A DNA stretch of 64,000 bases from Amphiscolops sp. MND2022. Lineage: Eukaryota. The stretch spans positions 76,200,001 to 76,264,000 of the forward strand of contig OZ076409.1 in assembly GCA_964187785.1 (NCBI GenBank), in the 5' to 3' direction. This document shows, in pieces, positions 1 through 64,000 of the stretch. The notes beneath the pieces were generated by a model. The model had not been told where the DNA came from. It was given only the letters and a program-made list of their open reading frames with translations, and ran no database searches. Position numbers and translations under genes: made by a program. Numbering within the stretch: position 1 is the first letter of the stretch; every line of letters starts with the position of its first letter.

Positions 1-800
1 ATGGGGCTTCCGCCTCCTTTTTTTACTGCTAAAACAGTAAAATGGGCATTGAGGGGTAAATATCTCGTGAACGCGTGGAGCAATCGTGTCCATCACTACT
101 ACAAGGTTTCATACCCATGATATGGTGCCTTCAGGGGGGCAAACAGATTTCCGCTATCTATCACCGTTACCGACTTGGCCCCCCAGCCTAACCGCTATGT
201 GACCGGAAATGTCACTTTTTGAGCCCAAAGGGTCGGTCCCAGCCGGGGAACGTTAGGTAAATTATTGTAGTACTCAATGAGACGAGTTGGGGGATATAGT
301 TTCAGTCACCCCCCGTTACCCCTTGGGACCGGAAATGACCGTTATGTGGGTAAAATTGCAATTTTTATACTTTTTCAAGTGTATTTAGGTGCGGAAGGAG
401 TGGTAATAGGTGCTTGGACACTATATGAGGCAAGGGAGGACGTGAGGCGAGCATTCGGAAATAACCGTTATGTTGACCCTAAAGTCCCCCTGGTACCGTA
501 AACGACCGGAAATGGTCAAATTTTGTGTCTATTGGGTACAAATGTTTAGTATTTTGTAGATAAAAGTATCTATTAGGTGTTTCGACGGTCTGCAGTAGTG
601 AACATAGTCATGAAACCTTGTGGGGGGTAACGGTATATAGCACCGGAAGTCCAAACCGTTGGTGACAGGATAGGTTTTTTGGTTTTAAAATGTCTTTCGG
701 CGTACCTTTGTCGACTATTAAGGACTATTTTTAAAAATTAAAGATTTTCCATATAGTTTCAGAGACCTCGAAACCTCAACCAACATAACCGTTACCTCAT

Positions 801-844
801 GATAGCCTTTCAAGTTGGCCTGGTGTCAACTTGGAAGGGCTATC
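801..844 (+). other. Long internal hairpin of families A and B (representative copy)
   Basis: GATAGCCTTTCAAGTTGGC-CTGGT-GTCAACTTGGAAGGGCTATC, with G-T pairs and one bulge. The B version is at 10187-10229. Confidence 0.85.
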
Positions 845-1144
845 CTTCAAAAATCGTCAATCAAGTGTGTTTTTGGGTATGTTTGTATCATTTTAGAATC
901 AATTAGAGCTTCAAGAAAAGTTTCCCAACAACAAAAACTATGTCGTGAAGATTCCGTTACTAGAATTATAGTTAGCAAATTGTTGAGAAAATTTTTTTTT
1001 CCAAATTAAATGTGTCCTAAATGCCAGGAAACCTATTTTACTAACAAATGGTATTGATTGGAATGTATGTAACAGATTTATAAAAGTTCAAATTGATTAT
1101 TAGGTTTCATTATGGAAGCTGAAACGTAATATTTTAGTTTAATT

Positions 1145-1260
1145 AACGTCAACGCCACACACTTTACATCAACGCCCACCGTCTGTGGGCATGCCGAGGC
1201 ATGCCCTTCGACGACGTATACCAAATACATACCTAACGACGCCCGTACATCCCGGGCTAG
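1145..1260 (+). other. Conserved 3'-terminal module (representative copy): TCAACGCC direct repeat, 20 bp palindrome, variable tail, GCTAG
   Basis: ACGTCAACGCC..ACATCAACGCC; GGGCATGCCGAGGCATGCCC at 1187-1206, extended by CGTC/GACG. Present in A, B, C2 and C3. Confidence 0.9.
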
Positions 1261-1317
1261 GTGCGGGGGGGAAACCCCATCCCTTATCTTGGAGGATTCG
1301 GGTAGGGTCCTGAATCC
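1261..1317 (+). other. Conserved 5'-terminal module (representative copy): GTG start, GNRA hairpin, TAGGGT-loop hairpin
   Basis: GGGG-GAAA/GTAA-CCCC at 1267-1278 and GGATTCGGG-TAGGGT-CCTGAATCC at 1294-1317. Confidence 0.9.
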
Positions 1318-4300
1318 GATTTTAGTTCGCCCAGCTCTCAGTAGAAATCTGGGAAATTTTTTGCGATCTCGTGATCTAACCATAGGATTTTAAAGTTGGA
1401 GCGGCCCCCACCAGATTTTCCAAAGTTATTCGCCCCCCACCGGGTTCCAGCGTGATTGAAATATTTTGACGGGGTACACGGGCGACCGTTAGGGGTCATT
1501 TTGGGGGTAAAATTTATATCCGGTCGCATAACTTTTTTCCTGTTGGATTAAAACTTTGGGACCCTGCTAAAAGTTTCTTGACCGTGTTGCGGGGGCTCCG
1601 GAGGTCCAAACCAAATTTTTCTATCTTGAAGCTATCTCCAAGTACCCCCCCGCCCAAAACGTTATTTTTCCGGAAACGCAGGTTTTTGACCCGGAAGGAG
1701 TCGTCGGAGCGCGGGGTCGTTAGGTGATGTATTGGGGACGGCCTTGAGACGAAGTGGGGGACATGCAGTTTACCAACCCCAGTTTACCCCCCGGACGGGA
1801 AATGACCGTTATATGAGCGGGAAAAATGCCCCCCTCCACGTTTTACCGCTATTTCCGGTGTGAAGGAGTGGGAGTAGCGCGTCGGGTGCCATATATCAAA
1901 AGTAGGTTTGAACAAGGAACTATCGGAAACATGTGGTTTGGGACCCCCTGGACCAACCCGTTAGCAGGAAATGGGGCTTCCGTCCCGTTTTTTTACGGTT
2001 AAAAACGGAAAATGGGCATTGAGGGGTAAATATCTCGTGAACGCGTGGAGCTACGGTGTCCATCACTACTACAAGGTTTCATACCCATGATATGGTGCCT
2101 TCAGGGGGGCAAACATATTTCCGCTATCTATCACCGTTACCGACTTGGCCCCCCAGCCTAACCGCTATGTGACCGGAAATGTCACTTTTTGAGCCCAAAG
2201 GGTCGGTCCCAGCCGGGGAACGTTAGGTAAATTATTGTAGTACTCAATGAGACGAGTTGGGGGATATAGTTTCAGTCACCCCCCGTTACCCCTTGGGACC
2301 GGAAATGACCGTTATGTGGGTAAAATTGCAATTTATATACTTTTTCAAGTGTATTTAGGTGCGGAAGGAGTGGTAATAGGTGCTTGGACACTATATGAGG
2401 TAAGGGAGGACGTGAGGCGAGCATTCGGAAATAACCGTTATGTTGACCCTAAAGTCCCCCTGGTACCGTAAACGACCGGAAATGGTCAACTTTTGTGTCT
2501 ATTGGGTACAAATGTTTAGTATTTTGTAGATAAAAGTATCTATTAGGTGTTTCGACGGTCTGCAGTAGTGAACATAGTCATGAAACCTTGTGGGGGGTAA
2601 CGGTATATAGCACCGGAAGTCCAAACCGTTGGTGACAGGATAGGTTTTTTGGTTTTAAAATGTCTTTCGGCGTACCTTTGTCGACTATTAAGGACTATTT
2701 TTGAAAATTAAAGATTTTCCATATAGTTTCAGAGACCTCGAAACCTCAACCAACATAACCGTTACCTCATGATAGCCTTTCAAGTTGGCCTGGTGTCAAC
2801 TTGGAAGGGCTATCCTTCAAAAATCGTCAATCAAGTGTGTTTTTGGGTATGTTTGTATCATTTTAGAATCAATTAGAGCTTCAAGAAAAGTTTCCCAACA
2901 ACAAAAACTATGTCGTGAAGATTCCGTTACTAGAATTATAGTTAGCAAATTGTTGAGAAAATTTTTTTCCAAATTAAATGTGTCCTAAATGCCAGGAAAC
3001 CTATTTTACTAACAAATGGTATTGATTGGAATGTATGTAACAGATTTATAAAAGTTCAAATTGATTATTAGGTTTCATTATGGAAGCTGAAACGTAATAT
3101 TTTAGTTTAATTAACGTCAACGCCACACACTTTACATCAACGCCCACCGTCTGTGGGCATGCCGAGGCATGCCCTTCGACGACGTATACCAAATACATAC
3201 CTAACGACGCCCGTACATCCCGGGCTAGGTGCGGGGGGGTAACCCCAACAAAGATATTGGAGGATTCGGGTAGGGTCCTGAATCCGATCTTAGTACCGCC
3301 AGCTATCAGTAGAAAATTTCCCTCAAAAACCGGGATCTCGGGAACTAACCGTAGGATTTGAAAGTTGGAGCGGCCCCCACCAGATTTTCCCAAATAGATC
3401 GCCCCCCACCGGGCTCCATACCCCGGAAAATTTTTTTTTGGCCACACGGGCGACAGTTAGGGGGTCATTTTAGGGGTAAAATTCATATTGGTCCATATAA
3501 CTTTTTTTCTGTTGGTTTAAAAGTTTGGGAACCCTACTAAAGGTTTTTCGACCATGTTGCAAGGGCTCCGGAGGTGCAAACCAAATTTTTCTATCTTGAA
3601 GCTATCTCCAAGTACCCCCCCGCTCAAACCGTTATTTTTCCGGAAACGCAGGTTTTTGACCCGGAAGGAGTCGTCTGAGCGCGGGGTCGTTAGGTGATGT
3701 TTTGGGGACGGCCTTGAGACGAAGTGGGGGACATGTAGTTTGCCAACCTCAGTTTACCCCCCGGACGGGAAATGACCGTTATATCAGCGGGAAAAATGCC
3801 CCCCTCCACGTTTTACCGCTATTTCCGGTGTGAAGGAGTGGGAGTAGCTCGTCGGGTGCCATATATCAAAAGTAGGTTCAGACAAGGACCTATCGGAAAC
3901 ATGTGGTTTGGGACCCCCTGACCCAACCCGTTAGCGGGAAATGGGGCTTCCGCCTCCTTTTTTTACGGTTAAAAACGGAAAATGGGCATTGAGGGATAAA
4001 TATCTCGTGAACGCGTGGAGCTACGGTGTCCTTCACTACTACAAGGTTTCATACCCATGATATGGTGCCTTCAGGGGGGCAAACAGATTTCCGCTATCTA
4101 TCACCGTTACGGACTTGGCCCCCCAGCCTAACCGCTATGTGACCGGAAATGTCACTTTTTGAGCCCAAAGGGTCGGTCCCAGCCAGGGAACGTTAGATAA
4201 CTTATTGTAGTACTCATTGAGACGAGTTGGGGGACATAGTTTCAGTCACCCCCGTTACCCCTTGGGACCGGAAATGACCGTTATGTGGGTAAAATTGGGA

Positions 4301-7300
4301 TTTTTGTACTTTTTGAAGGGCAATTAGGTGCGGAAGGAGTGGTAATAGTTGCTTGGACACTATATGATGGAAGGGAGGACGTGAGGCGAACATTCGGACA
4401 TAACCGTTATGTTGACCCTAAAGTCCCCCTGGTACCGTAAACGACCGGAAATGGTCAAATTTTGTGTCTATTGGGTACAAATGTTTGGTATTTTGTAAAT
4501 AAAAGTATCTATTAGGTGTTTCGACGGTCTGCAGTAGTGAACATAGTCATGAAACCTTGTCGGGGGGTAACGGTATATAGCACCGGAAGTCCAAACCGTT
4601 AGAGACGGGATAGGTTTTTTCGTTTTAAAATGTCTTTCGGCGTACTTTTGTCAACTAATATGGAATATTTTTTAAAATTAAAGTTTTTCCATATAGTTTC
4701 AGAGACTCCCAAACCTCAAACAACATAACCGTTACCTTATGATAGCCTTTCAAGTTGGCCTGGTGTCAACTTGGAAGGGCTATCCTTCAAAAATCGTTGA
4801 TCAAGTGTGTTTTTGGGTATGTTTGAATCTTTTTAGAATCAATTAGAGCTTCAAGAAAAATTTGCCAACGACAAAAACTATGTCGTGATGATTCCGTTAT
4901 TAGAGTAATAGTTAACAAAATGTTGATAAAGTTGATTTTGTACATTTCAAATGTGTCCTTTATGCCAGAAAACCTTTTTACCAAACTAATGATATTGATT
5001 GAATTGTATATAACAGGTAATAAAAGTTCAAATTGAATATTACGTTTCATTTTGTAAGCTGAAACGTGATATTAAAGTTTAATTAACGTCAACGCCACAT
5101 ACTTTACATCAACGCCCACCGTCTGTGGGCATGCCGAGGCATGCCCTTCGACGACGTATACCAAACACCCTCCATATCTACACCCTAACCGCGGTAGCAG
5201 CTAGGTGCGGGGGGGTAACCCCAACAAATATATTGGAGGATTCGGGTAGGGTCCTGAATCCGATTTTAACTCTAATAGCTATCGATAGGAAATCTTGCAA
5301 AAATTTCGGGATCTCGTGATCTAACCATAGGATTTTAAAGTTGGAGCGGCCCCCACCAGATTTTCCAAAATTGATCGCCCCCCACCGGGTTCCATACCCC
5401 GGAAAATTTTTTTCTGGCCACACGGGCGACCGTTAGGGGGTCATTTTAGGGGTAAAATTCATATTGGGCCACATAACTTTTTTTCTGTTGATTTAAAACT
5501 TTGGAACCCTGCTAAAAGTTTCTTGACCGTGTTGCAGGGGCCCCGAAGGTCCAAACCAAATTTTTCTATCTTGAAGCTATCTCCAAGTACCCCCCCGCTC
5601 AAACCGTTATTTTTCCGGAAACGCAGGTTTTTGACCCGGAAGGAGTCGTCTGAGCGCGGGGTCGTTAGGTGATGTATTGGGGACGGCCTTGAGACGAAGT
5701 GGGGGACAAGTAGTTTGCCAACCTCAATTTACCCCCCGGACGGGAAATGACCGTTATATGAGCGTGAAAAATGCCCCCCTCCACGTTTTACCGCTATTTC
5801 CGGTGTGAAGGAGTGGGAGTAGCGCGTCGGGTGTTATATAACAAAAGTAGGTTTAGACAAGGACCTATCGGAAACATGTAGTTTGGGACCCCCTGGACCA
5901 ACCCGTTAGCGGGAAATGGGGCTTCCGCCTCCTTTTTTTAGTGCTAAAACCGTAAAATGGGCATTGAGGGGTAAATATCTCGTGAACGCGTGGAGCAATC
6001 GTGTCCATCACTACTACAAGGTTTCATACCCATGATATGGTGCCTTCAGGGGGGCAAACAGATTTCCGCTATCTATCACCGTTACCGACTTGGCCCCCCA
6101 GCCTAACCGCTATGTGACCGGAAATGTCACTTTTTGAGCCCAAAGGGTCGGTCCCAGCCGGGGAACGTTAGGTAACTTATTGTAGTACTCAATGAGACGA
6201 GTTGGGGGATATAGTTTCAGTCACCCCCCTTTACCCCTTGGGACCGGAAATGACCGTTATGTGGGTAAAATTGCAATTTTTATACTTTTTCAAGTGTATT
6301 TAGGTGCGGAAGGAGTGGTAATAGGTGCTTGGACACTATATGAGGTAAGGGAGGACGTGAGGCGAGCATTCGGAAATAACCGTTATGTTGACCCTAAAGT
6401 CCCCCTGGTACCGTAAACGACCGGAAATGGTCAAATTTTGTGTCTATTGGGTACAAATGTTTTGTATTTTGTAGATAAAAGTATCTATTAGGTGTTTCGA
6501 CGGTCTACAGTAGTGAACATAGTCATGAAACCTTGTGGGGGGTAACGGTATATAGCACCGGAAGTCAAACCGTTGGAGACAGGATAGGTTTTTTGGTTTT
6601 AAAATGTCTTTCGGCGTAATTTTTTCGACTCTTGTGGACTATTTTTAAAAATTAAAGTTTTTCCATATAGTTTCAGAGACTCCGAAACCTCAACCAACAT
6701 AACCGTTACCTTATGATAGCCTTTCAAGTTGGCCTGGTGTCAACTTGGAAGCGCTATCCTTCTGAAATCGTTAATCAAGAGTGTTTTTGGGTAGGTATAT
6801 ATTGCATTAGTACCAATTAGAGCTTCATCAACAGTGTATCAACGACAAAAACTATGCCGTCATGATTCCGTTATTAGAATCATAGTGAGCAAATTGTTGA
6901 AAAAAATGGTTTTTTCCATACAAAATGTGTCCTAAATGCCAGGAAACCTATTTACCTAACAAATGGTATTATTTGGAATGTTTGTAACAGGTTTATAAAA
7001 GTTCAAATTGAATATTACATTTCATTATGGAAGCTGAAACGTCATATTTTAGTTTAATTAACGTCAACGCCACACACTTTACATCAACGCACACCGTCTG
7101 TGGGCATGCCGAGGCATGCCCTTCGACGACGTATGACAAATCCATATCAAACGACGCCCGTACATCCCGGGCTAGGTGCGGGGGGGTAACCCCTACAAAG
7201 ATATTGGAGGATTCGGGTAGGGTCCTGAATCCGAGTTCAGTGCTGCCAGCTATCGTTAGGGATTTTAGAAAATTTTGCCGATCTCGTGATCTAACCGTAG

Positions 7301-9149
7301 GATTTTAAAGTTGGAGCGGCCCCCACCAGATTTTCCAAAGTTATTCGCCCCCCACCGGGTTCCAGCGTGATTGAAATATTTTGTCGGGGTACACGGGCGA
7401 CCGTTAGGGGTCATTTTGGGGGTAAAATTTATATCCGGTCGCATAACTTTTTTCCTGTTGGTTTAAAACTTTGGGACCCTGCTAAAAGTTTCTTGACCGT
7501 GTTGCAGTGGCTCCGGATGTCCAAACCAAATTTTTCTATCTTGAAGCTATCTCCAAGTACCCCCCCGCCCAAACCGTTATTTTTCCGGAAACGCAGGTTT
7601 TTGACCCGGAAGGAGTCGTCTGAGCGCGGGGTCGTTAGGTGATGTATTGGGGACGGCCTTGAGACGAAGCGGGGGACATGTAGCTTGCCGACCCCAGTTT
7701 ACCCCCCGGACGGGAAATGACCGTTATTTGAGCGGGAAAAATGCCCCCCTCCACGTTTTACCGCTATTTCCGGTGTCAAGGAGTGGGAGTAGCGCGTCGG
7801 GTGTTATATAACAAAAGTAGGTTTAGACAAGGACCTATCGGAAACATGTAGTTTGGGACCCTCTGGACCAACCCGTTAGCGGGAAATGGGGCTTCCGCCT
7901 CCTTTTTTTACTGCTAAAACCTTAAAATGGGCATTGAGGGGTAAATATCTCGTGAACACGTGGAGCTACGGTGTCCATCACTACTACAAGGTTTCATACC
8001 CATGATATGGTGCCTTCAGGGGGGCAAACAGATTTCCGCTATCTATCACCGTTACCGACTTGGCCCCCCAGCCTAACCGCTATGTGACCGGAAATGTCAC
8101 TTTTTGAGCCCAAAGGGTCGGTCCCAGCCGGGGAACGTTAGGTAACCTATTGTAGTACTCAATGAGACGAGTTGGGGGATATAGTTTCAGTCACCCCCCG
8201 TTACCCCTTGGGACCGGAAATGACCGTTATGTGGGTAAAATTGCAATTTTTATACTTTTTCAAGTGTATTTAGGTGCGGAAGGAGTGGTAATAGGTGCTT
8301 GGACACTATATGAAGGAAGGGAGGACGTGAGGCGAGCATTCGAAAAAAACCGTTATGTTGACCCCGAAGTCCCCCTGGTACCGGAAGTGACCCGTAATGG
8401 TCAAATTTCGTGTTTTTAGGGTACAAATGTTTGGTGTTTTATGGATAACAGTGCCTTTTAGGTGTTTCGACGGTCTGCAGTCGTAAACATAGTCATGAAA
8501 CCTTGTGGGGGGTAACGGTATATAGCACCGGAAGTCCAAACCGTTGGAGACAGGATAAGTTTTTTGGTTTTAAAATGTCTTTCGTCATACTTTTGTCGAC
8601 TATTATGGACTATTTTTGGAAAATAAAGTTTTTCCATATAGTTTCAGAGACTCCGAAACCTCAACCAACATAACCGTTACCTTATGATAGCCTTTCAAGT
8701 TGGCCTGGTGTCAACTTGGAAGGGCTATCCTTCAAAAATCATTAATCCAGTGTGTTTTTGAGTATGCTTGTTTTACTTTAGAATCAATTAGAGCTTCAAG
8801 AAAAGATTGCCAACGACAAAAACTATGTCGTGATGATTCCGTTATTAGAATAATAGTTACCAAAATGTTGATAAAGTTGATTTTTTACATTTCAAATATG
8901 TCCTAAATGCCAGAAAACCTCTTTACCAAACAAATGGTATTGATTGAATTGTATATAGCAGCTAATAAAAGTTCAAATTGAATATTACGTTTCATTATGG
9001 AAGCTGAAATGTCATATTATAGTTTCATTAACGTCAACGCCACATACTTTACATCAACGCCCACCGTCTGTGGGCATGCCGAGGCATGCCCTTCGACGAC
9101 GTATACCAAATTCCTCCAACACAACACCGCCGAGCGCGGTAGCAGCTAG

Positions 9150-10538
9150 GTGGTTGGGGCGGTCCCCAGAACGCACAAGGAGGCGCGGGGAGGGTCCTGC
9201 GCCGACGTAGAATAATTTCATATAATACTAGTATCCTACATGGGTGTTTTAGAGGCGATTTTGGAATCTAACCGTAGGATTTGGATAATTTTTTGCATGC
9301 GGCCATAACTCGAAATTCTAAGAACTTTTTCCTACTGTCATTTTCCCCGCAAATTGTTGTTTGTTGACTTATGGCCGAAAAACCGGAAATAACGTCCTTT
9401 TTAGACGTTATATCCGAAGTGTCGTCATAACTTTTTTCCAGGGCATGCTAGCGTTCTCCTTCACTTTTACACTTTGTTTTAGCATCTCAAAATACAACTG
9501 GTGGAAAATTTTGGTTGCATTCGGATCACCCCCCACCGAGATAGAAGGGTTCCCCCCTCCAGTTTTACCCCCCAAAATTGAGAAAATACCAATTTTGAGC
9601 ATGAAGCCGTGGATTTAGCGAATCCTCACCCCCCTGATGTTTTGTCGGACATGTTAGGGTCAATCTGGTGACATGTGTGGTTTTCACCCCCAACCCCCCT
9701 GGGACCGGAAATGACACTTTTTTGTGTTTTTTGACAAAAATGAGCCTTTTTGATTAGTAGGGAGTCGTTTTTGGGCCTCCTAGCAGGATATCGAAGTTGA
9801 AATACAACTTGATCACAACCCAGTGACAACATGTTGGCCAGTTGCAGGTACCATCATGACCGGAAGTGGGGTCAAACCCCCCTTTTTGTGACCGCTTTTT
9901 GACCTTGTGCACCAAAATGCCAACAACTTGAGGCCTAATGACGCATTCAAATCTGTACAAAGATAGAACGTTAGACAACGGAAGTCCCGCAAGCTCTTTA
10001 GCATATACCGGACGTCACCCCCCATGACCGGAAGTTGTCCAATATGACCGGAAATGGTCCAAAAATTCATGTAAAATTAACTTTTTCACTTATTGAAGAC
10101 CACTTCGTTGAACATTTTCAATCCCAAAACTAGCGTACTAGCTGGTGGCGTTGAATTTATGGAAATTGAGGAGCTTTATCACCCCCGATAGCCTTCGAAG
10201 TTGACCTTGCGTCAACTTTGGAGGCTATCGATTCTGAAAATGAACAACAAAGTACTTTGTTGCTCTCGTTTTTTTTCCGTTTTTTTCCTCAAATATTGTT
10301 GAGACATACACATGGCCGTTAGTTAAAATCAATATTTTAGCCCATGTTATAGCGTGAGTAGCGAAGCGTTACACAGGCTGGTGTGGTTTTGAACTGTAAT
10401 TATTTTAAAATAAAAAAAGACCCTCTTAGTCAACTCCACACATTCATACCAACGCCCACCGTCTGTGGGCATGCCGAGGCATGCCCTTCGACGACGTATG
10501 ACGAATCCACTCCAACGACACCCGCAGTCCTCAGCTAG
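9150..10538 (+). mobile_element. Family B unit (1389 bp), a divergent relative in the same array
   Basis: Starts GTGGTT right after GCTAG and ends CAGCTAG before GTGCG. The interior is largely different from A but keeps the 5' GAGGGT hairpin, the GATAGCC...GGCTATC hairpin (10187-10229), several GACCGGAAAT/GT motifs and the 3' palindrome module. Confidence 0.8.
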
Positions 10539-34290: not shown

Positions 34291-34354
34291 GTGCGGGGGG
34301 GAAACCCCTTCCTTTATCTTGGAGGATTCGGGTAGGGTCCTGAATCCGATTTTA

Positions 34355-36363: not shown

Positions 36364-36398
36364 GTTCGCCCAGCTCTCAGTAGAAATCTGGGAAATTT
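36364..36398 (+). repeat. 35 bp direct repeat, right copy (candidate target-site duplication)
   Basis: Identical to 34355-34389 and directly follows the nested unit's terminal CTAG. Confidence 0.85.
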
Positions 36399-50695: not shown

Positions 50696-51966
50696 GTGGC
50701 CGGAAATTTTTTTTTCATCAAAATCTTTGCCATTGGGGGAGGGGCCCCGGATGGCCAGTAGTACGGGATAGCTTCCTACCAAATCCAGATGGAAAAAACG
50801 TGATTTTGGAAACTAGCCGTCAGAATTTGCTCAAATTTTGCATACGGCTTCCTATAACAATCCTAAGAACTAATCCCTACTGGCATTTTGCCCAAAAAAC
50901 GCAAAAAGTTGGTCAAAATCTTAGTTTTTTGGTCAAAAAATGGCGTTTTTTCGAAAAAAAATTTTTTCAGAGACAATTACTCGTAACTGGTTCACCCAGC
51001 GCAAAAACGCCTAGCTGATTTATTGTTGGGCACTTCATGAGGAGTGCGTATACAAATTTTCGTCCAAATCGGATAAAAGTTGATTGAGAAATAACTGAAA
51101 ATTTGAGGCATTTTTTTGGAAAATTTTGAAATCCCAGTCTATCTCTGCCGTTTTTTGCCCAGATTTTTTTCCAGACACTCTCCCAAAGACCTCCCCTGGC
51201 CGGTTTACCTCCCAGCAAAACCATTTGGCCCTAAATACGGAGTTTCAGCATTCCAGCAAACCCCGGGTAAAAGATAAATGACTTAGAATTTTTTCGAAAA
51301 ATTTTCAAAATTTTTTTTTTCAAATTCAGGCCTCCTAAAGTAAAGAAACTTCCACACAACTAGGATTGCAAGTGATAGCATGTGGAAAGTGCTTGAATAG
51401 ACGAGAAAAATGAGCTATTATACGACTCTGTAGCTTAACCTGACGTTGACTTATGATAATTTTAGTGTGAGCTTCGTATGTGCTGAAAAAATCAAAGAAA
51501 CCTAAAAGTCTTTTTAAGGTAATCAGGATACGTCCAATCAACCCCAGAGCTGTTATATTGCCGTTGTGTAGTAGAGCAACACCATTTAGAGTGTTTTGAC
51601 CCTTTTTGACAAGTTTTGATACAGTCTTGTTCATCCAATAGCTTAAAACAGTTGAGTACATTCCATCTCCCCCCTTGTGGGGGAGATGAGAATGTACTCG
51701 CTAAAAGTCAGGTACTATAGCGCCCATTTTGTTTTATTCGACGCTAGTGATGCTATTGCAGACGAATACAATAGTTTTGTCAAATCATGTTTGACATGAT
51801 GAATCTTACTTTACCTTTAGTTTACGTTTACCTACTACTACAACATCGCATCCCTGACGTCAACGCCACATACTCGCATCAACGCCCACCGTCCGTGGGC
51901 ATGCCGAGGCATGCCCTTCGACGACGTATGCCAAATAGCGCCACAGGGCGCAAACTTGTCCGCTAG
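50696..51966 (+). mobile_element. Family C unit C3 (1271 bp)
   Basis: Starts GTGGCCGGAAA after GCTAG. Ends with the shared 3' module, a GCGCCACAGGGCGC hairpin, an 11 nt spacer and CTAG. Confidence 0.8.
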
Positions 51967-54900
51967 GTGCGGGGGGGTAACCCCAACAAATATATTGGAG
52001 GATTCGGGTAGGGTCCTGAATCCGATTTTAACTCTAATAGCTATCGATAGGAAATCTTGCAAAAATTTCGGGATCTCGTGATCTAACCATAGGATTTTAA
52101 AGTTGGAGCGGCCCCCACCAGATTTTCCGAAAATTAGCGCCCCCCACCGGGTTCCATACCCCGGAAAATTTTTTTCTGGCCACACGGGCGACCGTTAGGG
52201 GGTCATTTTAGGGGTAAAATTCATATTGGGCCACATAACTTTTTTTCTGTTGATTTAAAACTTTGGAACCCTGCTAAAAGTTTCTTGACCGTGTTGCAGG
52301 GGCCCCGAAGGTCCAAACCAAATTTTTCTATCTTGAAGCTATCTCCAAGTACCCCCCCGCTCAAACCGTTATTTTTCCGGAAACGCAGGTTTTTGACCCG
52401 GAAGGAGTCGTCTGAGCGCGGGGTCGTTAGGTGATGTATTGGGGACGGCCTTGAGACGAAGTGGGGGACAAGTAGTTTGCCAACCTCAATTTACCCCCCG
52501 GACGGGAAATGACCGTTATATGAGCGTGAAAAATGCCCCCCTCCACGTTTTACCGCTTTTTCCGGTGTGAAGGAGTGGGAGTAGCGCGTCGGGTGTTATA
52601 TAACAAAAGTAGGTTTAGACAAGGACCTATCGGAAACATGTAGTTTGGGACCCCCTGGACCAACCCGTTAGCGGGAAATGGGGCTTCCGCCTCCTTTTTC
52701 TAGTGCTAAAACCGTGAAATGGGCATTGAGGGGTAAATATCTCGTGAACGCGTGGAGCAATCGTGTCCATCACTACTACAAGGTTTCATACCCATGATAT
52801 GGTGCCTTCAGGGGGGCAAACAGATTTCCGCTATCTATCACCGTTACCGACTTGGCCCCCCAGCCTAACCTCTATGTGACCGGAAATGTCACTTTTTGAG
52901 CCCAAAGGGTCGGTCCCAGCCGGGGAACGTTAGGTAACTTATTGTAGTACTCAATGAGACGAGTTGGGGGATATAGTTTCAGTCACCCCCCGTTACCCCT
53001 TGGGACCGGAAATGACCGTTATGTGGGTAAAATTGCAATTTTTATACTTTTTCAAGTGTATTTAGGTGCGGAAGGAGTGGTAATAGGTGCTTGGACACTA
53101 TATGAGGTAAGGGAGGACGTGAGGCGAGCATTCGGAAATAACCGTTATGTTGACCCTAAAGTCCCCCTGGTACCGTAAGCGACCGGAAATGGTCAAATTT
53201 TATGTCTATTGGGTACAAATGTTTTGTATTTTGTAGATAAAAGTATCTATTAGGTGTTTCGACGGTCTACAGTAGTGAACATAGTCATGAAACCTTGTGG
53301 GGGGTAACGGTATATAGCACCGGAAGTCAAACCGTTGGAGACAGGATAGGTTTTTTGGTTTTAAAATGTCTTTCGGCGTAATTTTTTCGACTCTTGTGGA
53401 CTATTTTTAAAAATTAAAGTTTTTCCATATAGTTTCAGAGACTCCGAAACCTCAACCAACATAACCGTTACCTTATGATAGCCTTTCAAGTTGGCCTGGT
53501 GTCAACTTGGAAGCGCTATCCTTCTGAAATCGTTAATCAAGAGTGTTTTTGGGTAGGTATATATTGCATTAGTACCAATTAGAGCTTCATCAACAGTGTA
53601 TCAACGACAAAAACTATGCCGTCATGATTCCGTTATTAGAATCATAGTGAGCAAATTGTTGAAAAAAATGGTTTTTTCCATACAAAATGTGTCCTAAATG
53701 CCAGGAAACCTATTTACCTAACAAATGGTATTAATTGGAATGTATGTAACAGATTTATAAAAGTTCAAATTGATTATTACATTTCATTATGGAAGCTGAA
53801 ACGTCATACTTTAGTTTAATTAACGTCAACGCCACACACTTTACATCAACGCCCACCGTCTGTGGGCATGCCGAGGCATGCCCTTCGACGACGTATGACA
53901 ATTCCATATCAAACGACGCCCGTACATCCCGGGCTAGGTGCGGGGGGGAAACCCCATCCCTTATCTTGGAGGATTCGGGTAGGGTCCTGAATCCGAGTTC
54001 AGTGCCGCCAGCTCTCAGTAGAAATCTGGGCATTTTTTTGCGATCTCGTGATCTAACCATAGGATTTTAAAGTTGGAGCGGCCCCCACCAGATTTTCCAA
54101 AGTTATTCGCCCCCCACCGGGTTCCAGCGTGATTGAAATATTCTGACGGGGTACACGGGCGACCGTTAGGGGTCATTTTAGGGGTAAAATTTATATCCGG
54201 TCGCATAACTTTTTTCCTGTTGGATTAAAACTTTTGGACCCTGCTAAAAGTTTCTTGACCGTGTTGCGGGGGCTCCGGAGGTCCAAACCAAATTTTTCTA
54301 TCTTGAAGCTATCTCCAAGTACCCCCCCGCCCAAACCGTTATTTTTCCGGAAACGCCGGTTTTTGACCCGGAAGGAGTCGTCTGAGCGCGGGGTTGTTAG
54401 GTGATGTTTTGGGGACGGCCTTGAGACGAAGCGGGGGATATATAGTTTGCCGACCCCAGTTTACCCCCCGGACGGGAAATGACCGTTATATGAGCGGGAA
54501 AAATGCCCCCCTCCACGTTTTACCGCTATTTCCGGTGTGAAGGAGTGGGAGTAGCGCGTCGGGTGTTATATATCAAAAGTAGGTTTAGACAAGGACCTAT
54601 CGGAAACATGTAGTTTGGGACCCCCTGGTCCAACCCGTTAGCGAGAAATGGGGCTTCCGCCTCCTTTTTTTACTGCTAAAACCGTAAAATGGGCATTGAG
54701 GGGTAAAAATCTCGTGAACGCGTGGAGCAATCGTGTCCATCACTACTACAAGGTTTCATACCCATGATATGGTGCCTTCAGGGGGGCAAACAGATTTCCG
54801 CTATCTATCACCGTTACCGACTTGGCCCCCCAGCCTAACCGCTATATGACCGGAAATGTCACTTTTTGAGCCCAAAGGGTCGGTCCCAGCCGGGGAACGT

Positions 54901-57900
54901 TAGGTAACTTATTGTAGTACTCAATGAGACGAGTTGGGGGATATAGTTTCAGTCACCCCCCGTTACCCCTTGGGACCGGAAATGACCGTTATGTGGGTAA
55001 AATTGCAATTTTTATACTTTTTCAAGTGTATTTAGGTGCGGAAGGAGTGGTAATAGGTGCTTGGACACTATATGAGGTAAGGGAGGACGTGAGGCGAGCA
55101 TTCGGAAATAACCGTTATGTTGACCCTAAAGTCCCCCTGGTACCGTAAACGACCGGAAATGGTCAAATTTTGTGTCTATTGGGTACAAATGTTTAGTATT
55201 TTGTAGATAAAAGTATCTATTAGGTGTTTCGACGGTCTGCAATAGTGAACATAGTCATGAAACCTTGTGGGGGGTAACGGGGTATATAGCACCGGAAGTC
55301 CAAACCGTTGGACACAGGATAGGTTTTTGGTTTGAAAATGTCTTTCGGCGTACTTTTGTCGACTATTATGGACTATTATTAAAAATTAAAGTTTTTCCAT
55401 ATAGTTTCAGAGACTCCGAAACCTCAACCAACATAACCGTTACATTTTGATAGCCTTTCAAGTTGGCCTGGTGTCAACTTGGAAGCGCTATCCTTCTGAA
55501 ATCGTAAATCAAGAGTGTTTTTGGGTAGGTATATATTGCATTAGTACCAATTAGAGCTTCATCAACAGTGTATCAACGACAAAAACTATGCCGTCAGGAT
55601 TCCGTTATTAGAATCATAGTGAGCAAATTGTTGAAAAAAAAGGTTTTTTCCATACAAAATGTGTCCTAAATGCCAGGAAACCTATTTACCTAACAAATGG
55701 TATTAATTGGAATGTATGTAACAGATTTATAAAAGTTCAAATTGAATATTACATTTCATTATGGAAGCTGAAACGTTATATTTTAGTTTGATTAACGTCC
55801 ACGCCACATACTTTACATCAACGCCCACCGTCTGTGGGCATGCCGAGGCATGCCCTTCGTCGACATATACCAAATACATACCTAACGACGCCCGTACATC
55901 CCGGGCTAGGTGCGGGGGGGAAACCCCATCCCTTATCTTGGAGGATTCGGGTAGGGTCCTGAATCCGATCTTAGTTCGCCCAGCTCTCAGTAGAAATCTG
56001 GGAAATTTTTTGCGATCTCGTGATCTAACCATAGGATTTTAAAGTTGGAGCGGCCCCCACCAGATTTTCCAAAGTTATTCGCCCCCCACCGGGTTCCAGC
56101 GTGATTGAAATATTCTGACGGGGTACACGGGCGACCGTTAGGGGTCATTTTAGGGGTAAAATTTATATAATGTCGCTTAACTTTTTTCCTGTTGGATTAA
56201 AACTTTGGGACCCTGCTAAAAGTTTCTTGACCGTGTTGCAGGGGCCCCGGAGGTCCAAACCAAATTTTTCTATCTTGAAGCTATCTCCAAGTACCCCCCC
56301 GCCCAAACCGTTATTTTTCTGGATACGCCGGTTTTTGACCCGGAAGGAGTCGTCTGAGCGCGGGGTCGTTAGGTGATGTTTTGGGGACGGCCTCGAGACG
56401 AAGCGGGGGATATATAGTTTGCCGACCCCAGTTTACCCCCCGCACGGGAAATGACCGTTATATGAGCGGGAAAAATGCCCCCCTCCACGTTTTACCGCTA
56501 TTTCCGGTGTGAAGGAGTGGGAGTAGCGCGTCGGGTGTTATATAACAAAAGTAGGTTTAGACAAGGACCTATCGGAAACATGTGGTTTGGGACCCCCTGA
56601 CCCAACCCGTTAGCGGGAAATGGGGCTTCCGCCTCCTTTTTTTATTGCTAAAACCGTAAAATGGGCATTGAGGGGTAAATATCTCGTGAACGCGTGGAGC
56701 AATCGTGTCCATCACTACTACAAGGTTTCATACCCATGATATGGTGCCTTCAGGGGGGCAAACAGATTTCCGCTATCTATCACCGTTACGGACTTGGCCC
56801 CCCAGCCTAACCGCTATGTGACCGGAAATGTCACTTTTTGAGCCCAAAGGGTCGGTCCCAGCCAGGGAACGTTAGGAAACTTATTGTAGTACTCAATGAG
56901 ACGAGTTGGGGGACAAAGTTTCAGTCACCCCCCGTTACCCCTTGGGACCGGAAATGACCGTTATGTGGGTAAATTTGCAAGTTTTATACTTTTTCAAGTG
57001 TATTTAGGTGCGGAAGGAGTGGTAATAGGTGCTTGGACACTATATGAAGGAAGGGAGGACGTGAGGCGAGCATTCGGAAATAACCGTTATGTTGACCCTA
57101 AAGTCCCCCTGGTACCGGAAGTGACCCGTAATGGTCAAATTTTGTGTTCAAAGGGTACAAATGTTTGGTGTTTTTTGGATAACAGTACCTATTAGGTGTT
57201 TTGACGGTCTGCAGTCGTGAACATAGTCATGAAACCTTGTGGGGGGTAACGGTATATAGCACCGGAAGTCCAAACCGTTGGAGAAAGGATAAGTTTTTTG
57301 GTTTTAAAATGTCTTTCGGCCTACTTTTGTTGACTATTATGGACTATTTTTGAAAAATACAGTTTTTCCATATAGTTTCAGAGACTCCGAAACCTCAACC
57401 AACATAACCGTTACGTTATGATAGCCTTTCAAGTTGGCCTGGTGTCAACTTGGAAGGGCTATCCTTCAAAAATCATTAATCAAGTGTGTTTTTGAGTATG
57501 TTTGTATTACTTTAGAATCAATTAGAGCTTCAAGAAAAGTTTGCCAACGACAAAAACTATGTCGTGATGATTCCGTTATTAGAATAATGGTTAAGAAAAT
57601 GTTGATAAATTTGATTTTTTACATTTCAAATGTGTCGTAAATGCCAGAAAACCTTTTTACCAAACAAATGGTATTGATTGAATTGTATATAACAGGTAAT
57701 AAAAGTTCAAATTGATTATTACGTTTCATTATTCAAGCTAAAAATTCATAACATAGTTTAATTAACGTCAACGTCACATACTTTTTATCAACGCCCACCG
57801 TCTGTGGGCATGCCGAGGCATGCCCTTCGACGACGTATACCAAATACATACCTAACGACGCCCGTACATGCCGGGCTAGGTGCGGGGGGGAAACCCCAAC

Positions 57901-60900
57901 AAAATTTTTGGAGGATTCGGGTAGGGTCCTGAATCCGAGTTCAGTGCTGCCAGCTTTCGTTAAGAAAATTTGGATAGGATTCGGGATCTCGTGATCTAAC
58001 CATAGGATTTTAAAGTTGGAGCGGCCCCCACCAGATTTTCCGAAAATTAGCGCCCCCCACCGGGTTCCATACCCCGGAAAATTTTTTTCTGGCCACACGG
58101 GCGACCGTTAGGGGGTCATTTTAGGGGTAAATTTCATATTGGGCCACATAACTTTTTTTCTGTTGATTTAAAACTTTGGGACCCTGCTAAAAGTTTCTTG
58201 ACCGTGTTGCAAGGGCTCCGGAGGTCCAAACCAAATTTTTCTATCTTGAAGCTATCTCCAAGTACCCCCCCGCCCAAAACGTTATTTTTCCGGAAACGCA
58301 GGTTTTTGACCCGGAAGGAGTCGTCGGAGCGCGGGGTCGTTAGGTGATGTATTGGGGACGGCCTTGAGACGAAGTGGGGGACATGCAGTTTGCCAACCCC
58401 AGTTTACCCCCGGACGGGAAATGACCGTTATATGAGCGGCAAAAATGTCTCCCTCCACGTTTTACCGCTATTTCCGGTGTGAAGGAATGGGAGTAGCGCG
58501 TCGGGTGCCATATATCAAAAGTAGGTTTAGACAAGGACCTATCGGAAACATGTGGTTTGGGACCCCCTGGACCAACCCGTTAGCGGGAAATGGGGCTTCC
58601 GCCTCCTTTTTTTACTGCTAAAACAGTAAAATGGGCATTGAGGGGTAAATATCTCGTGAACGCGTGGAGCTACGGTGTCCATCACTACTACAAGGTTTCA
58701 TACCCATGATATGGTGCCTTCAGGGGGGCAAACAGATTTCCGCTATCTATCACCGTTACTGACTTGGCCCCCCAGCCTAACCGCTATGTGACCGGAAATG
58801 TCACTTTTTGAGCCCAAAGGGTCGATCCTAGCCGGGCAACGTTAGGTAACAAATTGTAGTACTCATTGAGACGAGTTGGGGGATCTAGTTTCAGTCACCC
58901 CCCGTTACCCCTTGAGACCGGAAATGACCGTTATGTGAGTAGAATTGCAATTTTTATACCTTTTGAAGGGCATTTAGGTGCGGAAGGAATGGTAATAGGT
59001 GCTTGGACACTATATGATGTAATGGAGGTCGTGAGGAGAGCATTCGGAAGTAACCGTTACGTTGACCCCAAAGTCCCCCTGGTACCGTTAACAACCGGAA
59101 ATGGCCAAATTTTGTGTTTATAGGGTACAAATGTTTGGTATTTTATGGATAAAAGTACCTGGAAGGTGTTTTAAAGGCCTCCAGAAGTGAACATAGTCAT
59201 GAAACTTTGTGGGGGTAACGGTATATAGCACCGGAAGTCCAAACCGTTAGTTACAGGATAGGTTTTTTGGTTTCAAAAGGTCTTTAGGCGTACTTTTGTT
59301 GGTTGAATCGTCATAATATCAACTAATACGGACTTTTTTCGGAAATAAAATTTTTTCACATTAGTTTCAGGGACCTCCAATGTTTCAGTCAACATAACCG
59401 TTACATTTTGATAGCCTTTCAAGTTGGCCTGGTGTCAACTTGGAAGGGCTATCCTTCTAAAATCGTTAATCAAGAGTGTTTTTGGGTAGGTATATGTTGC
59501 ATTAGTACCAATTAGAGCTTCATCAACAGTTTGCCAACGGCAAAAACGATGTCGTGATAATTCCGTTATAAGAATATTAATTAACAAATTGTTTCCAAAG
59601 TTGATTTTTTCCATTCGAAATGTGTCCCAATGCCACCAAATTGAATAAAATAATAAATGGTATTGACTAAAACTAAATAACATTGAAAAAGAAGCTCAAC
59701 ATTTTTAATAGGTCTCATTATGGAAGCTGAAACCTCACGTTTTAACTTAATTAACGTCAACGCCACATACTTTACATCAACGCCCACCGTCTGTGGGCAT
59801 GCCGAGGCATGCCCTTCGACGACGTATACCAATTACATATATATCTACACCCACCCGCGGTAGCAGCTAGGTGCGGGGGGGTAACCCCAACAAAATTTTT
59901 GGAGGATTCGGGTAGGGTCCTGAATCCGAGTTCAGTGCTGCCAGCTTTCGTTAAGAAAATTTGGATAGGATTCGGGATCTCGTGATCTAACCATAGGATT
60001 TTAAAGTTGGAGCGGCCCCCACCAGATTTTCCGAAAATTAGCGCCCCCCACCGGGTTCCATACCCCGGAAAATTTTTTTCTGGCCACACGGGCGACCGTT
60101 AGGGGTCATTTTAGGGGTAAAATTCATATTGGGCCACATAACTTTTTTTCTGTTGATTTAAAACTTTAGGACCCTGCTAAAAGTTTCTTGACCATGTTGC
60201 AGGGGCCCCGGAGGTCCAAACCAAATTTTTCTATCTTGAAGCTATCTCCAAGTACCCCCCCGCCCAAACCGTTATTTTTCCGGAAACGCAGGTTTTTGAC
60301 CCGGAAGGAGTCGTCTGAGCGCGGGGTCGTTAGGTGATGTTTTGGGGACGGCCTCGAGACGAAGCGGGGGATATATAGTTTGCCGACCCCAGTTTACCCC
60401 CCGGACGGGAAATGACCGTTATATGAGCGGGAAGATTGCCCCCCTCCACGTTTAACCGCTATTTCCGGTGTGAAGGAGTGGGAGTAGCGCGTCGGGTGTC
60501 ATATATCAAAAGTAGGTTTAGACAAGGACCTATCGGAAACATGTAGTTTGGGACCCCCTGGACCAACCTGTTAGCGGGAAATGGCGCTTCCGCCTCCTTT
60601 TTTTTACTTCTAAAACCGTAAAATGGGCATTGAGGGGTAAATATCTCGTGAACGCGTGGAGCTACGGTGTCATTCACTACTGCAAGGTTTCATACCCATG
60701 ATATGGTGCCTTCAGGGGGGCAAACAGATTTCCGCTATCTATCACCGTTACCGACTTGGCCCCCCAGCCTAACCGCTATGTGACCGGAAATGTCACTTTT
60801 TGAGCCCAAAGGGTCGGTCCCAGCCGGGGAACGTTAGGTAACTTATTGTAGTACTCAATGAGACGAGTTGGGGGATATAGTTTCAGTCACCCCCGTTACC

Positions 60901-63900
60901 CCTTGGGACCGGAAATGACCGTTATGTGGGTAAAATTGCAATTTTTATACTTTTTCAAGTGTATTTAGGTGCGGAAGGAGTGGTAATAGGTGCTTGGACA
61001 CTATATGAGGTAAGGGAGGACGTGAGGCGAGCATTCGGAAATAACCGTTATGTTGACCCTAAAGTCCCCCTGGTACCGTAAACGACCGGAAATGGTCAAA
61101 TTTTGTGTCTATTGGGTACAAATGTTTAGTATTTTGTAGATAAAAGTATCTATTAGGTGTTTCGACGGTCTGCAATAGTGAACATAGTCATGAAACCTTG
61201 TGGGGGGTAACGGGGTATATAGCACCGGAAGTCCAAACCGTTGGACACAGGATAGGCTTTTGGTTTGAAAATGTCTTTCGGCGTACTTTTGTCGACTATT
61301 ATGGACTATTATTAAAAATTAAAGTTTTTCCATATAGTTTCAGAGACTCCGAAACCTCAACCAACATAACCGTTACATTTTGATAGCCTTTCAAGTTGGC
61401 CTGGTGTCAACTTGGAAGCGCTATCCTTCTGAAATCGTTAATCAAGAGTGTTTTTGGGTAGGTATATATTGCATTAGTACCAATTAGAGCTTCATCAACA
61501 GTGTATCAACGACAAAAACTATGCCGTCAGGATTCCGTTATTAGAATCATAGTGAGCAAATTGTTGAAAAAAATGGTTTTTTCCAAATAAAAATGTGTCC
61601 TAAATGCCAGGAAACCTATTTACCTAACAAATGGTATTAATTGGAATGTATGTAACAGATTTATAAAAGTTCAAATTGAATATTACATTTCATTATGGAA
61701 GCTGAAACGTAATTTTTTAGTTTAATTAACGTCAACGCCACACACTTTACATCAACGCCCACCGTCTGTGGGCATGCCGAGGCATGCCCTTCGACGACGT
61801 ATACCAAATACATACCCAAACGACGCCCGTACATCCCGGGCTAGGTGCGGGGGGGAAACCCCTTCCTTTATCTTGGAGGATTCGGGTAGGGTCCTGAATC
61901 CGAGTTCAGTGCCGCCAGCTCTCAGTAGAAATCTGGGAAATTTTTTGCGATCTCGTGATCTAACCATAGGATTTTAAAGTTGGAGCGGCCCCCACCAGAT
62001 TTTCCAAAGTTATTCGCCCCCCACCGGGTTCCAGCGTGATTGAAATATTTTGACGGGGTACACGGGCGACCGTTAGGGGTCATTTTGGGGGTAAAATTCA
62101 TATTGGGCCACATAACTTTTTTTCTGTTGATTTAAAACTTTGGGACCCTGCTAAAAGTTTCTTGACCATGTTGCAGGGGCCCCGGAGGTCCAAACCAAAT
62201 TTTTCTATCTTGAAGCTATCTCCAAGTACCCCCCCGCCCAAACCGTTATTTTTCCGGAAACGCCGGTTTTTGACCCGGAAGGAGTCGTCTGAGCGCGGGG
62301 TCGTTAGGTGATGTATTGGGGACGGCCTTGAGACGAAGCGGGGGATATATAGTTTGCCGACCCCAGTTTACCCCCCGCACGGGAAATGACCGTTATATGA
62401 GCGGGAAAAATGCCCCCCTCCACGTTTTACCGCTATTTCCGGTGTGAAGGAGTGGGAGTAGCGCGTCGGGTGTTATATATCAAAAGTAGGTTTAGACAAG
62501 GATCTATCAGGAACATGTAGTTTGGGACCCCCTGGACCAACCCGCTAGCGGGAAATGGCGCTTCCGCCTCCTTTTTTTACTGCTAAAACCGTAAAATGGG
62601 CATTGAGGGGTAAATATCTCGTGAACGCGTGGAGCTACGATGTCCTTCACTACTACAAGGTTTCATACCCATGATATGGTGCCTTTAGGGGGGCAAACAG
62701 ATTTCCGCTATCTATCACCGTTACCGACTTGGCCCCTCAGCCTAACCGCTATGTGACCGGAAATGTCACTTTTTGAGCCCAAAGGGTCGGTCCCAGCCGG
62801 GGAACGTTAGGTAACTTATTGTAGTACTCAATGAGACGAGTTGGGGGATATAGTTTCAGTCACCCCCCGTTACCCCTTGGGACCGGAAATGACCGTTATG
62901 TGGGTAAAATTGCAATTTTTATACTTTTTCAAGTGTATTTAGGTGCGGAAGGAGTGGTAATAGGTGCTTGGACACTATATGAGGTAAGGGAGGACGTGAG
63001 GCGAGCATTCGGAAATGACCGTTATGTTGACCCTAAAATCCCCCTGGTACCGTAAACGACCGGAAATGGTCAAATTTTGTGTCTATTGGGTACAAATGTT
63101 TAGTATTTTGTAGATAAAAGTATCTATTAGGTGTTTCGACGGTCTGCAATAGTGAACATAGTCATGAAACCTTGTGGGGGGTAGCGGGGTATATAGCACC
63201 GGAAGTCCAAACCGTTGGACACAGGATAGGTTTTTGGTTTGAAAATGTCTTTCGGCGTACTTTTGTCGACTATTATGGACTATTATTAAAAATTAAAGTT
63301 TTTCCATATAGTTTCAGAGACTCCGAAACCTCAACCAACATAACCGTTACATTTTGATAGCCTTTCAAGTTGGCCTGGTGTCAACTTGGAAGCGCTATCC
63401 TTCTGAAATCGTTAATCAAGAGTGTTTTTGGGTAGGTATATATTGCATTAGTACCAATTAGAGCTTCATCAACAGTGTTTCAACGACAAAAACTATGCCG
63501 TCAGGATTCCGTTATTAGAATCATAGTGAGCAAATTGTTGAAAAAAATGGTTTTTTCCATACAAAATGTGTCCTAAATGCCAGGAAACCTATTTACCTAA
63601 CAAATGGTATTAATTGGAATGTATGTAACAGATTTATAAAAGTTCAAGTTGAATATTACATTTCATTATGGAAGCTGAAACCTCACGTTTTAGGTCACTT
63701 AGCGTCAACGCCACATACTTTACATCAACGCCCACTGTCTGTGGGCATGCCGAGGCATGCCCTTCGACGACGTATACCAATTACATATATATCTACACCC
63801 ACCCGCGGTAGCAGCTAGGTGCGGGGGGGAAACCCCATCCCTTATCTTGGAGGATTCGGGTAGGGTCCTGAATCCGAGTTCAGTGCCGCCAGCTCTCAGT

Positions 63901-64000
63901 AGAAATCTGGGCATTTTTTTGCGATCTCGTGATCTAACCATAGGATTTTAAAGTTGGAGCGGCCCCCACCAGATTTTCCAAAGTTATTCGCCCCCCACCG
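51967..64000 (+). mobile_element. Six complete family A units starting at 51967, 53938, 55910, 57880, 59871, 61845, plus a partial unit from 63819
   Basis: GCTAG|GTGCG junctions; lengths 1970-1991 bp. Confidence 0.75.

Follow-up and report, generated by a model that had tools for sequence, protein, structure and literature searches.

The window analysed here is a 64,000-nucleotide stretch, C1:76,200,001-76,264,000 (C1 being contig OZ076409.1), of the 1.07-Gb eukaryotic assembly of Amphiscolops sp. MND2022. The + strand of the window is a head-to-tail array, without gaps, of three types of unit, A, B and C, here called cassettes. These are non-coding cassettes that share their GTG...CTRG ends with much longer elements of the same arrays, which encode a Rep-helicase-GIY-YIG protein. 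From sequence comparisons, it is likely that the array was built by the Rep-helicase enzyme inserting cassettes singly at the CTRG|GTG joints of resident copies. Contigs are labelled C1, C2, C4, C5, C8, C10 and so on, and the three C-type cassettes of the window are called the C1, C2 and C3 cassettes. The features of the window are as follows.

1..1260, + strand, 3' part of an A cassette with a CTAG end (motif and unit comparison)
1146..1220, + strand, shared 3' module, example copy, with its hairpin at 1187-1206 (outer-pair covariation)
1257..1263, + strand, example junction CTAG|GTG (cassette end/next start), which fits the target consensus CTNG^DT
1294..1317, + strand, A head (5') hairpin with loop TAGGGT (stem predicted under the KAGGGN loop)
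1261..9149, + strand, four A cassettes of 1,968-1,976 bp
9150..10538, + strand, B cassette of 1,389 bp
10539..34290, + strand, twelve A cassettes, subfamilies shuffled
34291..38292, + strand, the exception: a full A (34390-36363) inside another A's head, with a 35-bp duplication
38293..46198, + strand, four A cassettes
46199..47469, + strand, C1 cassette of 1,271 bp with a CTGG end and no 3' module
47470..48740, + strand, C2 cassette of 1,271 bp
48741..50695, + strand, A cassette
50696..51966, + strand, C3 cassette of 1,271 bp
51967..64000, + strand, six A cassettes plus the beginning of a seventh; the array continues past the window

The motif CT[AG]GGTG occurs 33 times on the + strand of the window (32 CTAG, 1 CTGG) and once on the - strand; about 7 would be expected from base composition, and every one of the 33 is a unit border. 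A preliminary description of this DNA had proposed precise end-to-start joining in one orientation, and the seven joints between unlike units are indeed exact: GCTAG|GTG follows 9149, 10538, 46198, 48740, 50695 and 51966, and ACTGG|GTG follows 47469. The joint is not, as had been claimed, invariant, since the compound unit at 34291-38292 consists of bases 1-99 of an A, a full A (34390-36363) and an A from base 65 onward, with junctions ATTT|GTG and CTAG|GTT and an exact 35-bp duplication (34355-34389 = 36364-36398).

The 29 A-type segments are about 1.93-2.07 kb long, typically about 1,975 bp, and have a mean pairwise identity of 90%. There is one B, of 1,389 bp, and there are three C units, each exactly 1,271 bp, with mutual identities of 70-77%. 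The three types had been taken for different families. They do differ in length and sequence, but they are related: A, B and two of the three C units have in common a 3' module of about 75 bp that is 87-94% identical across A, B and C, bases ~105-220 are common to B and C, and an internal hairpin is common to A and B. The C1 cassette (46199-47469) is without the module. The module hairpin, which lies about 55-70 bases 5' of the cassette end in A, B, C2 and C3 and is absent from the C1 cassette, covaries: in the window copies the outer pair is G-C in 28, A-T in 5 and mismatched in none, and across all loci it is G-C in 228, A-T in 31 and mismatched in 3. The internal hairpin common to A and B (GATAGCC...GGCTATC; window 744-803 and 10188-10231) is long and is also found in a 4.9-kb family, and the C units have another long internal hairpin, near 47180-47222, 48429-48477 and 51654-51700. 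Each A unit carries an old internal direct repeat of about 185 bp with 69% identity (for example 1646-1829 and 2149-2329). Family sizes cluster, for the most part, in a few classes (about 1.05, 1.28, 1.39 and 1.98 kb); because of these classes, and because the C units are equal in length in spite of 70-77% identity, a length constraint on mobilisation or chromatin phasing is suggested. The window has no long open reading frame (ORF), the longest stop-to-stop frame being 162 aa, and no tRNA. A scan of 7000-12600, which covers A and B units, found nothing near threshold in Rfam, and a known ribozyme or structured RNA was rejected as the identity of these units.

Autonomous cassettes were found by walking out from C1-type copies. 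Nine were delimited by a junction at both ends and are 12.2-25.8 kb long; they carry an intact frame of about 2,400 aa with an HUH(Y2) Rep, a PIF1 helicase and a C-terminal GIY-YIG domain. The first three of these proteins to be read were only 31-37% identical to one another. The cassette at C4:77,151,376-77,165,457 (14,082 bp) starts with GTGG, has the 3' module of the window, ends with CTGG and encodes 2,526 aa. Another, at C1:76281437-76295586, lies 17.4 kb to the right of the window; it is 14,150 bp long with an ORF of 2,386 codons, and its head and tail type are those of an adjoining 1,253-bp non-coding family. Of ten further Rep loci, five have a junction at each end, one has only the 3' junction, and four had no head inside the 20 kb examined. 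A Rep search of the genome gave 140 matches, 70 of them in frames of at least 2,000 codons; 28 of these 70 long frames lie in C1:70.4-76.6 Mb, all on the array strand. The C units are 67-89% identical to the 5' 770 bp of autonomous cassettes. The C1 cassette shows 89% identity, over its bases 111-782, with the 5' part of an autonomous cassette of 14.2 kb. The C2 cassette matches a 17-kb autonomous cassette on contig C5 at 68% over bases 1-770 and at 92% over the last 95, and the C3 cassette has the head type of the 17-kb autonomous cassette on contig C5, with 71% identity over bases 1-779 and 94% over 90 bp at the 3' end. An autonomous partner recognisable by its ends had been predicted, and these Rep-helicase cassettes with GTG...CTRG ends, some with the 3' module of the window, bear the prediction out. 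The system is real and large, and it has apparently been active recently.

Pfam gave a partial match to Helitron_like_N above the cut-off, PF05970 (PIF1) above the cut-off and a C-terminal GIY-YIG in the sets of 7 and 10 cassette proteins scanned; the same scans found no reverse transcriptase (RT) domain and no match to AP endonuclease or DUF6570. The HUH residues E, H and H and both tyrosines are invariant in 71 aligned sequences. A model of the Rep (pLDDT 80) had Helraiser 7lcc as its best fold match (Foldseek E 9e-7), with Z 16.5 and rmsd 4.2 over 269 aligned residues, the next structure having Z 5.2; phmmer found no sequence match between the Rep and Helraiser, and identity is 13-15%. The preliminary description had invoked a trans-acting enzyme, either of the HUH/rolling-circle kind or an RT. 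The former agrees with the Rep-helicase cassettes, and the latter is not borne out by the proteins scanned. A retroelement or ribozyme array was likewise rejected, given the lack of RT in those proteins and of any Rfam family near threshold for A and B. The GIY-YIG domain has weak PDB matches to a UPF0213 protein and SLX1; as a guess, it might nick a structured target. Behind the transposase the autonomous cassettes have a second ORF, about 250-600 aa long, which matched nothing in Pfam in the cases scanned. Some of them carry GDSL/SGNH-like ORFs, below the Pfam cut-off, and some transposases have an N-terminal OTU domain. The autonomous cassette at C10:36,406,491-36,419,943 has a duplication of about 530 bp near its 5' end (bases 258-786 and 822-1325).

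The insertion target was read from the flanks of solo copies and array edges, which the preliminary description had proposed inspecting. Heads begin with GTG, those of solos included, and ends are CTAG or CTGG. The host 5' flank of first or solo heads was CTNG in 19 of 21 cases (9 CTTG, 8 CTAG, 1 CTCG and 1 CTGG; the exceptions were GTCC and TTTA), three of the 21 flanks having come from a search pattern biased to pyrimidine at -2. Free 3' flanks had T at +2 in 22 of 22 cases collected with a pattern that restricted the first base to non-G, and in 4 of 4 further flanks beginning with G. For a 1,977-bp solo on C2, the empty paralogue on C1 reads through CTAG^AT with nothing gained or lost. The target consensus is CTNG^DT, without target duplication; the array joint CTAG^GT fits it perfectly.

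The window's array appears to span 76,132,617 (host CTTG|GTG) to 76,487,313 on contig C1, and 144 kb of it were read contiguously. A larger block on this contig begins at 70,454,838, and an array end, which may belong to it, lies at 76,005,438. Among the regions seen, the large blocks are on contig C1 (70.45-76.49 Mb), at the end of C2 and at the start of C3, with small arrays elsewhere. A general centromeric satellite was rejected, because large blocks were found only at these three places and no one-per-chromosome pattern appeared in what was seen. The exact A-head pattern after CTRG occurs 812 times in the genome. A sample of 985 kb from 11 contigs, gathered by searches with known units and not random, held 396 junction heads in 49 clusters (at least one spurious; about 48 head families), with unit sizes of about 1.0-1.1, 1.3, 1.4, 2.0, 3.1, 4.9 and 12-26 kb. 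When heads were searched for without a condition on the preceding bases there were 417 matches, 13 of them one-base duplicates in a G run, and 400 of the remaining 404 follow CTNG. Of the 43 head families with a KAGGGN loop, 42 are predicted to form a GC-rich stem beneath it whose sequence varies (z averages -1.8, with 22 of the 43 below -2); the rule used to detect heads included the loop but not the stems. Orientation is uniform along every contiguous array read. Minus-strand A units at C1:76,043,545-76,079,990, between two plus-strand blocks of the contig, are an inverted or separately seeded array. A second case of an A inside an A is found at C1:71,099,374, where one head begins 93 bases within the other, at an internal CTTG; there the insert is not followed by the rest of the host unit.

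The order of the units bears on how the arrays grew. Adjacent A units are 90.4% identical, compared with 90.2% for all pairs (P 0.33), and identity does not decay with distance. Only 4 of 210 adjacent pairs are at least 99% identical and 13 reach 97%, and near-identical unit pairs (98% or more) share the next head in 23 of 308 cases. Eight copies of the C1 cassette, 98.7-100% identical, have eight different neighbour pairs on four chromosomes, and each of the 33 full B copies in the sample retains the B-type tail, no matter which units adjoin it. Because neighbours are not clonal and near-identical copies have different neighbours, cassettes were likely inserted singly at resident junctions, and because all 33 B copies keep the B tail and the eight C1 copies have eight neighbour pairs, the exchange point is confined to the 7-bp joint. 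Whole-cassette insertion at resident junctions, as first proposed for this array, is the best reading of these neighbour statistics; the single-cassette order itself is observed.

Non-clonal neighbours also disfavour concatemers and unequal crossover, both of which predict clonal neighbours. It might be that the same enzyme acts but that arrays grow mainly through rolling-circle concatemers, with read-through of 3' ends moving multi-cassette blocks and with junction targeting rare. Tandem Helitron concatemers are reported in plant centromeres (Xiong 2016, cited in PMC11934779), and bypass of the end is known for Helraiser (PMC4778049). In the arrays studied here there are short near-identical runs, for example of 99.9 and 99.4%, and families cluster. 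Growth of this kind is nevertheless unlikely given the scarcity of near-identical adjacent pairs and of shared next heads and the dispersed C1-cassette copies, and concatemers cannot make the heterologous joints.

A second possibility is that circles, once excised, return to arrays through homologous recombination by the host in the shared 3' module, and not through the transposase. The identity of the module across A, B and C would favour such exchange, and exchange within a family would be invisible and may help build the A run. However, crossing over within the module would exchange the final 40-45 bases, and 33 of 33 B copies and 8 of 8 C1 copies keep their own tails; moreover, the C1 cassette has no module, and only CTRGGTG is common at the joint. 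Module recombination is refuted for heterologous joints by the retained tails, and as an account of the arrays it is highly improbable.

Where cassettes land was also counted. About 5.5 million CTNG-DT sites are expected genome-wide, or about 10 per 2 kb at background density. One tail pattern was followed by GTG 356 times in the genome and by a non-G base 3 times (a count that excludes free ends starting with G). A census of all 36 copies of another tail placed 25 inside arrays, 3 at a 3' edge and 2 at a 5' edge; 5 are solo and 1 is undetermined, so that 30 of the 36 touch another cassette. Heads lie inside another unit in 3 of 404 cases, though internal CTNG-DT sites should outnumber junctions about tenfold. 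Alternatively, CTNG^DT sites might have been used at random, and local hopping together with purifying selection might have left copies in gene-poor arrays alone; the solos of the census, two cassettes 16 bp apart on C10 and the clustering of like ends are in keeping with this. We regard it as very unlikely in view of the rarity of internal heads and the uniform orientation along each contiguous array read. Taken alone, the window is a tandem repeat of about 2 kb without ORFs, with A subfamilies that look mosaic in head and tail type, as might be expected if it were a passive satellite in which unequal crossover and gene conversion had reworked dead Helitron remnants. Against this stand the lack of identity decay with distance, the joining of dozens of families at one base, the 70 intact frames and the precise solo insertion with its empty site, and a passive satellite is the least probable explanation of those considered.

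By analogy with Helraiser and IS91, insertion of single cassettes at joints might proceed as follows. The Rep would nick at CTNG^GTG before the head hairpin, and the helicase would peel off one strand up to the CTRG end. The strand ends would be joined into a circle, whose joint would be CTRG|GTG, and the strand would then be joined into the target. Each insertion would leave CTNG|GT on the left and CTRG|DT on the right, and two targets would therefore be regenerated. The enzyme probably recognises the terminal hairpins of the resident copy, because the tetranucleotide alone, with its millions of sites, cannot explain the arrays; a preference for ends like its own is suggested by the statistics. 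End similarity of unlike neighbours exceeds that in within-array shuffles (0 of 2,000 shuffles were as high), and in the censused tail family the upstream tail was of its own type in 21 of 27 cases, compared with 71 of 372 in the sample. Clustered families and similar neighbour ends fit lineage-specific end recognition, but they also fit local hopping. Two other ideas were rejected. Growth from one end only had been suggested by free 3' ends, and the census then gave 3 versus 2 edges; base pairing of tail and head as a guide to the target was rejected because own pairs and observed neighbours fold no better than shuffled ones (P 0.38-0.77). Asymmetric terminal inverted repeats like those of HLE2 were looked for in the last 18 and first 12 bases of 42 families, which paired no better than shuffled partners; a repeat 20-30 bases from the 3' end lay outside that search.

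Several observations weigh against joint-directed insertion. Targeting and activity are deduced from the DNA. Same-family neighbours number 73, versus 44 +/- 4 expected, and local amplification or local hopping would also give this excess. Imprecise events exist: the 35-bp duplication in the compound unit at 34291-38292, the two non-CTNG host flanks and the two cassettes 16 bp apart on C10. No polarity was seen: the array edges taken by the censused family are 3' in three cases and 5' in two. Autonomous elements with a head of the A or B type were not found, and A shares only the 3' module and 65-145 bp internally with autonomous cassettes. Four of the ten further autonomous loci had no head within 20 kb and a fifth had only the 3' junction, and the junction sample was not randomly drawn.

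Canonical Helitrons have a 5' TC and a 3' CTRR after a hairpin, and they insert between A and T. The cassettes described here belong to the Helitron superfamily and are not a new class; they have an HUH with two tyrosines, a fused PIF1, a Helraiser-like Rep fold and no target duplication (apart from the one 35-bp exception in the window). Their ends and targets are those of neither HLE1 nor HLE2, and their choice of target is like that of IS91. The heads start with neither the 5' TC of HLE1 nor the 5' T of HLE2, and CTNG^DT is neither the A^T of HLE1 nor the T^T of HLE2. Like HLE1/Helraiser (PDB 7lcc), they have a RepHel protein with HUH, two tyrosines and PIF1, the Rep fold, a 3' CTRR after a hairpin and no target duplication, and head-to-tail circle joints are known for Helitrons (PMC4778049). 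Unlike HLE1, they have a GTG start, a CTNG^DT target, a 5' hairpin with a conserved loop and a C-terminal GIY-YIG, the identity to Helraiser is 13-15%, the Rep is on a separate branch, and almost all copies are in mixed arrays. With HLE2 (Helitron2/Helentron) they have in common hairpins at both ends, and OTU in some relatives. The Chlamydomonas Helitron2 inserts behind TTTT, sometimes leaving variable duplications (PMC3627910), and one Sphagnum HLE2 family captured a GIY-YIG (PMC11417382); in contrast to HLE2, there is here no 5' T, no T^T target and no AP endonuclease or DUF6570 match, the Rep branch is separate, and GIY-YIG is clade-wide.

A third Helitron clade, from Paramecium and outside HLE1 and HLE2, is described as having strict orientation, a CCAA/telomere-repeat target that resembles its own 3' end, and many ORF-less derivatives (bioRxiv 10.1101/2025.11.06.686955). 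By that description the cassettes are similar in position outside HLE1 and HLE2, strict orientation, resemblance of the target to the element's own 3' end and ORF-less derivatives, and differ in that the Paramecium copies have a telomeric-repeat target and a CCAA end, are spaced by telomere repeats and are satellite-filled. No telomeric-repeat flank or CCAA end was seen among the flanks and ends read here, and no Paramecium sequence was among the proteins returned by the relative searches. IS91 uses a CTTG target at the origin end and CTCG at the terminator end, makes no duplication and forms circles with joined ends (bioRxiv 10.1101/2025.01.24.634351), to which CTNG before the head, CTRG at the tail and the absence of duplication correspond here. 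IS91 is small, bacterial and without a fused helicase (PMC10288648), whereas these cassettes encode a fused PIF1 and have no Rep relative in the prokaryote contigs scanned; IS91 arrays are not described in the literature consulted. Long tandem blocks derived from Helitrons are known in plants (Xiong 2016, cited in PMC11934779), Hydractinia (PMC11934779) and Meloidogyne (PMC13404089), the Meloidogyne arrays having autonomous copies interspersed (PMC13404089). These are described, in the parts consulted, as concatemers or as HLE1-type satellite carriers, whereas here dozens of families alternate at a base-exact joint with non-clonal neighbours. Replitrons are HUH copy-and-paste elements that insert 3' of a short target, with occasional variable duplications; they have one tyrosine, no helicase and terminal direct repeats (PMC10288648), none of which applies to the cassettes.

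A protein search gave 30 matches with E-values of 1e-78 or lower, followed only by a named Helentron at 5e-4; another search gave 54. The relatives include ENA matches, many of which may derive from this species or a close one (two match proteins of this genome exactly), entries from JGI and Logan assemblies, and entries from Perkinsus olseni (KAF4651874.1 among them; 33% identity over 1,809 aa), for which host contamination is possible. At the DNA level, the relatives yielded one 1-kb metagenome contig and none in the viral or prokaryote contigs scanned, so that the end grammar is documented for this genome only. In quick maximum-likelihood trees of the Rep core, unrooted, with SH-aLRT only, without bootstrap and with long branches, a branch with SH-aLRT 99-100 separates the group from the other Reps, of which the first tree had 6 and the second 11, with 9 clade rows omitted from the second. 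The comparison Reps were the HLE1-like and HLE2-like elements of this genome and the named Helentron (P0032). The Rep does not group with HLE1, which was represented by only two HLE1-like rows labelled by Pfam score, nor with HLE2, represented by P0032 and six same-genome relatives, published HLE2 subgroups being outside the sample. Two more RepHel proteins, on the unplaced contigs C1762 and C1384, form long branches outside the HLE1-like, HLE2-like and new groups. HELIANO left elements unclassified in 19 genomes (PMC11417382), and these may include the present group. As a divergent Helitron, the element is less new than the possibly undescribed mobile system first suggested; in the literature searched, itself seen in part, there was no description of this end grammar or of mixed Helitron arrays, with Repbase, Dfam and preprint supplements, which could hold the group, outside that search.

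We give roughly even odds to a wider proposal: that the group is a separate, widespread Helitron clade whose Rep-helicase-GIY-YIG enzyme integrates preferentially at its own circle joint, with dozens of families thereby stacking cassettes of 1-26 kb into megabase single-orientation arrays at a self-regenerating 7-bp joint. If this is true, the arrays would be a eukaryotic counterpart of integron-style cassette stacking, and the enzyme a natural site-specific integrase for large cargo. Little is understood of how Helitrons choose their targets, and both main groups use dinucleotides that are common; in the present group a defined tetranucleotide and, very likely, the element's own ends serve as the target, so that target choice would be testable with a short synthetic junction. 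Megabase "satellite" blocks could arise by the same process and would then be ordered records of single insertions; tools that look for TC...CTRR or for terminal inverted repeats would miss such arrays. Should the preference prove real, the enzyme would be a candidate for inserting large DNA at a landing site repeatedly, in a fixed orientation and without a scar.

Two further observations concern the surroundings of cassette ends. At C2:16.31 Mb, C8:15.96 Mb and C1:98,095,989, two cassette ends lie in copies of one repeat, which looks tRNA-derived. At C2:3,621,300-3,631,299, upstream of a decayed free tail, there is an 815-aa frame that resembles a protein-primed DNA polymerase B (Polinton-like).

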